Part shown: positions 1-451 of the stretch, piece by piece
Layout: each line of letters begins with the position of its first letter
How positions within the stretch are numbered: the first letter of the stretch is position 1
UHGV virus genome: UHGV-0187105
DNA: 24,417 nucleotides
Reading direction: 5' to 3' (one strand)
Source of the DNA: a virus
The notes under the pieces: generated by a model
Seen by the model: the letters and a program-made list of their open reading frames with translations, nothing else
What the model was told of the DNA's origin: nothing
Database searches by the model: none
Made by a program: the position numbers and the translations under genes

Positions 1-49
1 TAATTTAGTCTGCAAGGAGCAGGTGTTACAGACGGCATTGGCTTTACGC

Positions 50-451
50 TTACAGATAAGCTGTCGCTTTACCCACACCACCCAGAATGTTTTCTGCCGG
101 GATCCCCTGACGCACCAGCATCTGCATCATGTTCTGGAAATCAGCCGTTGTACCGGGTAGCTGGTTACCCAGGCCAATAGCCAGTTTATTGATGTCCTGA
201 AAGCTCTTTCCAACCTCGCCGTTCGCATCCATCATGGCGACTTTCAGCCCGGTAGCGGCGTTTTCCTGATCGGCATAAGATTTCAGGGAAAGCGTCAGCC
301 CCGCTGCCAGTCCTCCACCAAGCGCCAGCCCACCCTGTGACGCTTCTTCCGCCTGGCGTTTAAATCCCCGGATTTTCTTTTGCATTTTCGACAGCGCGGG
401 AGAAAGCCTGTCGACACCGGTGATCAACGCCTTAAGCTCAAATTCAGCCAT
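50..451 (-). CDS. Tail tape-measure protein, N-terminal segment; reading frame closes after 133 codons
   Basis: Minus-strand ORF starting 2 nt after the stop of the chaperone -1 extension, where a tape-measure gene is expected after tube and chaperone. Ala/Gly-rich, tape-measure-like N-terminus. TAA at 50-52 and a second in-frame TAA at 44-46, while the other two minus frames stay open to the window edge. Confidence 0.4.
   Translation of the reverse strand: MAEFELKALITGVDRLSPALSKMQKKIRGFKRQAEEASQGGLALGGGLAAGLTLSLKSYADQENAATGLKVAMMDANGEVGKSFQDINKLAIGLGNQLPGTTADFQNMMQMLVRQGIPAENILGGVGKATAYL

Follow-up and report, generated by a model that had tools for sequence, protein, structure and literature searches.

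The question raised by this locus is why the open reading frame (ORF) in the position of a phage tail tape-measure gene closes after 133 codons. Long phage tails depend on tape-measure proteins, which serve as an essential scaffold and as a ruler of tail length. The window analyzed here is the whole 24,417-nucleotide stretch of UHGV virus genome UHGV-0187105. An initial annotation of the window had described a 133-codon ORF at the tape-measure position with two in-frame stops, and it had offered several readings: a frameshifted or truncated gene in a defective tail module or cryptic prophage, an assembly error, or a separate small protein ahead of the tape measure. The evidence given below makes it highly probable that an IS66-family insertion sequence (IS) inserted itself by transposition at codon 133 of a tape-measure gene of 611 codons, in an SfV-like prophage with a Mu-type tail. 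Truncation of the gene, and with it a defective tail module, was thus the proposal that held, since an IS66-family IS splits the gene after codon 133. The actual cause, an IS insertion that supplies both stop codons, had been missed.

The short ORF runs on the minus strand from an ATG at 451 to position 50, and its product reads MAEFELKALITGVDRL...ATAYL. The ORF ends with a TAA at 52..50 (the window reads tta at 50-52), and a second in-frame TAA is located at 46..44 (tta at 44-46), six bases beyond the first; the window sequence therefore agrees with the first description of the ORF and its stops. Reading of the sequence by hand also confirmed that both other minus frames stay open to the window edge, an observation that is uninformative because the edge is only 16 codons away. 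With the NCBIfam model TIGR01760 (phage tail tape measure protein), the 133-aa product scored 46.2 bits, above the cutoff of 28.8, in a match spanning only profile positions 2-82 of 349, and with PF10145 it scored 21 bits, below the cutoff of 33.2. All 133 residues are identical to residues 1-133 of the SfV tape measure (orf14, NP_599046, 611 aa). Because the TIGR01760 cutoff was passed and the identity to SfV residues 1-133 is complete, the truncation is real, and the frame is not a chance ORF. Phages of the SfV group have a full-length uninterrupted ORF of about 611 aa; in the window, the frame stops after codon 133, and the truncated tape measure amounts to 22% of the full length.

The genes for the tail sheath, tail tube, and tail assembly chaperone lie upstream of this ORF, which is the expected place for a tape-measure gene, directly after the chaperone pair and before the baseplate/hub genes (Table 1). 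SfV, SfI, SfII, and the E. coli thrW-proA prophages have the same order of sheath, tube, chaperone, tape measure, DNA circularization protein, and baseplate genes, and the tail tube and sheath region of the window is 98 to 99.5% identical in nucleotide sequence to SfV-like prophages. A 141-nt "gap" ahead of the tape-measure gene is accounted for by the −1 frame extension of the chaperone, which fills it. A slippery heptamer, T_TTT_TTC, is located at 611..605, five codons before the chaperone stop, and a −1 frameshift is predicted to yield a fused chaperone product of 139 aa. Such a chaperone frameshift is conserved in tailed phages (G/GT-type arrangement).

TABLE 1 Features of the interrupted tape-measure locus in the window and of the IS genes beyond the window start
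Feature	Position	Strand	Description
IS66-family IS, left terminal inverted repeat, outermost 53 bases	1..53	-	Reads GTAAGCGTAAAGCCAATGCCG...; the IS continues past the window start
Two in-frame TAA stops	44..52	-	Belong to the IS terminal repeat G-TAA-GCG-TAA-AG; foreign to the phage gene
Tape-measure gene 5' fragment, codons 1-133 of 611	50..451	-	Identical to SfV orf14 residues 1-133
8-bp target-site duplication, one copy	54..61	-	Minus strand, GCTTATCT; plus strand, AGATAAGC
−1 frame extension of chaperone	444..626	-	Ends 8 nt inside the tape-measure start
Tail assembly chaperone, 89 aa	593..862	-	PF10109 (Phage_TAC_7), E = 1.9e-16
Tail tube, 118 aa	862..1218	-	PF10618; intact
Tail sheath, 498 aa	1218..2714	-	PF04984, PF17481, PF17482; intact
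tnpA, 144 aa			PF01527; read in contig L004
tnpB, 116 aa			PF05717; read in contig L004
tnpC, 537 aa			PF03050 and PF13005/13007/13817; read in contig L004

The extent of phage sequence at this end of the window was examined by comparing positions 1-2800 with 5,426 complete E. coli genomes and a phage collection. Positions 54-2800 matched about 900 E. coli genomes as well as SfV, SfI, and SfII at 98 to 99.5% identity, and among the best matches listed, in E. coli genomes and the phage collection alike, none reached below base 54. None of the best 30 matches in the 5,426 complete E. coli genomes crossed the junction into positions 1-53, and none of the best 30 E. coli records covered positions 1-2800 as one place. 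Because none of these best 30 matches crosses the junction, the allele appears to be confined to one lineage. Positions 1-60 alone were found at 1,096 places in 687 E. coli genomes, with as many as 22 in a single genome; both chromosomes and plasmids carry them. Where these copies are annotated, they border the first gene of IS66-family elements on its outer side, this gene being a 144-aa transposase ORF in the tnpA position.

On the minus strand, the IS terminal repeat starts GTAAGCGTAAAG and carries both stop codons. Since the window begins 53 bases into the IS, it shows only the 5' fragment of the gene and two stops. At the junction, the phage codon for Leu133 changes from CT(T) to CT(G), its last base coming from the IS, and TAA follows immediately. 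Leu133 is therefore kept, and the product consists of exactly phage residues 1-133, with no foreign residues.

This breakpoint bears directly on two other readings, in which the stops would result from a nonsense or frameshift mutation in a continuous gene or the ORF would be an independent 133-aa gene ahead of the tape measure. Frameshifted alleles do exist elsewhere, for example, in Shigella flexneri (P0007), but in the window, the similarity to SfV-type phages breaks off at base 54, with IS sequence taking its place. A frameshift or nonsense mutation was rejected on this ground. As for an independent gene, residues 1-133 form the start of an ORF of about 611 aa in SfV and E. coli, no gene of the smaller size is annotated there, and the 133-aa protein is not kept as an independent gene in SfV, SfI, SfII, or the E. 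coli prophages. A separate small gene was likewise rejected, given the single uninterrupted tape-measure ORF of about 611 codons in the relatives. Taken together, these explanations retain almost no probability.

The window holds 53 bases of the IS, and the far side of the insertion was read from contigs L004 and L017. L004 (GCA_009867545.1, PFXW01000005.1) is a public contig of 4.93 Mb that overlaps the window by 10,451 bases without a single difference, and the first 53 bases of its IS match window positions 1-53 exactly. In this contig, the tape-measure 5' fragment is followed by tnpA, tnpB, and tnpC and then by an ORF of 461 aa in which the C-terminal portion of PF10145 is recognized; after it come a gene for a Mu-N-like DNA circularization protein and then baseplate and tail fiber genes, of normal length. 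The orientation of the IS is that of the late operon. The 3' part of the tape-measure gene past the IS comprises 478 codons. A continuation in another frame beyond the window start had been suggested; instead, the gene resumes 2.5 kb on, past the IS, and in L004, subtracting the 8-bp duplication puts the remainder in frame with the 5' fragment. Downstream of the 133-aa ORF in L004, no separate full-length tape-measure gene was found. The PhageMin_Tail domain (PF10145) is itself split by the insertion, with profile positions 1-43 before the IS and 65-201 after it, and the 3' fragment in L004 matched the model with 53.8 bits.

A perfect 8-bp repeat, GCTTATCT, flanks the IS on both sides in L004. 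In the uninterrupted gene, the octamer is single, the sequence across the site matching at 79 of 80 bases in SfV and at 80 of 80 in E. coli IZSBS22. When the IS and one duplicate were removed in silico, an ORF of 1,836 nt resulted, the same length as SfV orf14. The restored 611-aa product aligned to the SfV tape measure without gaps and with 608 of 611 residues identical. SfV, SfI, SfII, and the E. coli prophages have an uninterrupted gene of about 611 codons, whereas here a 2,541-bp IS is present after codon 133. We conclude that a single transposition of the IS into codon 133 duplicated 8 bp of the target, GCTTATCT. Translation stops one base into the IS (GTAAGCGTAAAG), with the second TAA two codons later, and the 3' 478 codons and the baseplate genes are left on the far side of the IS.

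To define the interrupting element, the complete copy in L004 was analyzed. This IS is 2,541 bp long, and its three genes, tnpA, tnpB, and tnpC, which lie outside the window, are all intact as ORFs in L004. The NCBIfam-type model NF033517 matched tnpC with 450.5 bits (cutoff, 180). The ends of the IS read GTAAGCGT...ACGCTTAC, and both ends start GTAAGCGT; the terminal inverted repeats are imperfect, with a GTAAGCG start and 16 of the first 24 positions identical. IS66-family elements reportedly have imperfect terminal inverted repeats beginning 5'-GTAAGCG, and an 8-bp target-site duplication is a further trait of the family. The GTAA-type ends and the 8-bp duplication were checked on two copies of the IS, one in L004 and one in E. 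coli E200086. The E200086 copy, mismatched at 1 of its 2,541 bases, has split an integrase pseudogene and is flanked by another 8-bp duplication, AGATATGC. The different duplication at this copy confirms the IS boundaries and the 8-bp duplication. The terminal repeat end with both TAA codons is likewise present on this independent E. coli copy of the IS. Thus, the interrupting element has each of the testable IS66-family features. Over its 2,541 bases, it is 100% identical to E. coli copies that PGAP annotates as "IS66-like element ISEc47 family"; copies at ≥99% identity, that is, at least 99%, occur in 236 records, and the IS family as a whole was found at 15,657 places in 4,727 of the 5,426 E. 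coli genomes.

The recurrence of the junctions was assessed in a public assembly collection comprising NCBI isolates, ENA metagenomes, and Logan runs. The exact 133-aa product was found in 69 blocks of this collection. In most contigs with the product, the sequence runs out no more than about 50 bases from the IS boundary, as would be expected of a repeat that breaks short-read assembly, and L004 is the only long contig with the exact product; it runs through the site. In the metagenome contig ERZ1034913, the right junction consists of 55 bases of the IS end, then GCTTATCT, and then 3' tape-measure sequence, and over the first 5.7 kb this contig differs from L004 at 3 positions. Scans for the right junction gave no match in species-representative genomes, no match in IMG/VR viral contigs, and one match in metagenome contigs. 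Many short-read contigs (L007-L013 and L017) stop within about the first 50 bases of the IS, so the window start may itself be a contig end.

These data were also used to weigh an assembly error, in which the phage-IS join would be chimeric and the real gene intact, with GCTTATCT running into TGCGGTACAACTG. The window starts 53 bases into the IS, and the breaks in many short-read contigs fall no more than about 50 bases from the IS end, as such a misjoin would have it. However, a misjoin would not place perfect 8-bp direct repeats of the target on both sides of a complete IS, and independent assemblies from NCBI, ENA, and Logan data, the 69 blocks described above, contain the left junction. 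The perfect duplication and the recurrence of the same junctions in unrelated assemblies therefore led us to reject an artifact, the probability of which we regard as negligible.

A further possibility is that the IS marks a larger IS-mediated deletion or inversion in the genome from which the window derives, in which case the 3' tape-measure and baseplate genes would not be adjacent to the insertion. Only one IS end lies in the window, the IS family is multicopy in many genomes, and IS66-family copies can drive recombination between copies (PMC6778807). Against this, the insertion seen in L004, which is identical to the window over 10,451 bases, is a simple one bounded by a perfect 8-bp duplication, and ERZ1034913 independently shows a matching right junction. 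We give such a rearrangement a slight chance; with 10,451 bases identical to L004, a different structure in the window's own genome seems unlikely.

With transposition into codon 133 as the preferred explanation, the distribution of the allele was considered. NCBI names attached to the exact 133-aa sequence read [quoted passage not shown] along with partial variants. Judged from these names on the exact protein, the host is Salmonella enterica serovar Derby. The insertion explains the existence of the 133-aa and "phage tail tape measure protein, partial" entries in this serovar. In the same 90% cluster, a 188-aa protein from Derby (P0002) and a 202-aa protein from another Salmonella serovar (P0010) continue past residue 133; since P0002 does so, an uninterrupted allele is also present in serovar Derby. 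The Shigella flexneri allele P0007 (161 aa) leaves the frame in an A7 run, CTGAAAAAAACACC, five codons past the IS site. This run corresponds to L004 positions 12961-12967, just beyond the window start, and the loss of frame represents either an independent inactivation or a homopolymer sequencing error.

SfV-type phages have Shigella or E. coli as their host, whereas the host here is Salmonella Derby. The nucleotide sequence of the prophage is 97 to 99.5% identical to those of SfV-like prophages from E. coli and Shigella, and the IS matches E. coli copies at 100% identity, yet the exact protein carries a Derby name, which suggests that the phage and the IS have both been shared between genera recently. 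Two papers report SfV-like prophages in S. Derby (PMC3680342 and PMC11186997), including "partial" and "complete" SfV-like regions in S. Derby D1 and D2 (PMC3680342). Neither PMC3680342 nor PMC11186997 mentions an IS or a split tape-measure gene, and a literature search for IS-interrupted tape-measure genes returned nothing specific. Prophage callers may split a prophage at an IS, which could fit the "partial" and "complete" regions of D1 and D2 (PMC3680342). At this locus, the insertion shows why short-read assemblies and prophage callers break the prophage in two. The junction of GCGACAGCTTATCT with GTAAGCGTAAAG could serve as a lineage marker.

The genes for the repressor, replication, lysis, head, and baseplate appear intact. 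From the role of tape-measure proteins, a prophage without a full-length tape measure likely cannot build tails or infective particles, and the insertion predicts a tail-defective SfV-like prophage in the lineage that carries it. Read-through of the 2.5-kb IS may lower expression of the downstream baseplate genes, and the gene could be restored if the IS were, on rare occasions, excised precisely between the 8-bp repeats. A more elaborate proposal is that the insertion is a lineage-fixed "grounding" of the prophage under selection in S. Derby. The prophage would then keep immunity, cargo, and perhaps lysis or head production and would not spread, with excision acting as a reversible switch; alternatively, the 133-aa fragment would have a function of its own. 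We consider a proposal of this kind very unlikely.

Elsewhere in the window, a 226-aa plus-strand ORF at 11216-11896 lies on the strand opposite to its neighbors, between an HNH endonuclease gene and the lysis cassette, and is a possible cargo gene. This ORF gave a weak ClpP-like match (PF00574, 46 bits), and the NCBIfam ClpP and head-protease models all scored far below cutoff; in the closest E. coli prophage, a small YodC-family gene occupies the spot. Two other plus-strand ORFs, 21180-21497 (105 aa) and 21780-22460 (226 aa), are located downstream of the cI-type repressor gene (20389..21015), which is a typical location for exclusion or defense cargo genes. Neither had a Pfam, NCBIfam, or PADLOC match, and PADLOC returned zero matches for five plus-strand ORFs, comprising the putative cargo ORF between the HNH and lysis genes and four ORFs in the early region.

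Compared with known elements, the IS is typical of the IS66-family ISs of Enterobacteria (the ISEc47/ISEc43/ISEc23 group, with IS66 and IS679 as founders). It is like them in its tnpA-tnpB-tnpC genes and DDE_Tnp_IS66 domain and also in its length of about 2.5 kb, its GTAAGCG repeats, and its 8-bp duplication. The sole peculiarity here is the insertion site, a prophage tape-measure gene in Salmonella. Insertion of an IS into prophage structural genes is textbook prophage decay and brings nothing new in general biology; this particular allele may be undescribed, though it is no new kind of thing. The IS-riddled prophages of Shigella and STEC provide a parallel, in that a single mobile-element hit has struck an essential late gene while the remainder of the prophage is apparently undamaged. 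Unlike those prophages, the insertion described here is recent and clean, with a perfect duplication, a restorable ORF, and flanking genes that are unharmed in the region read.
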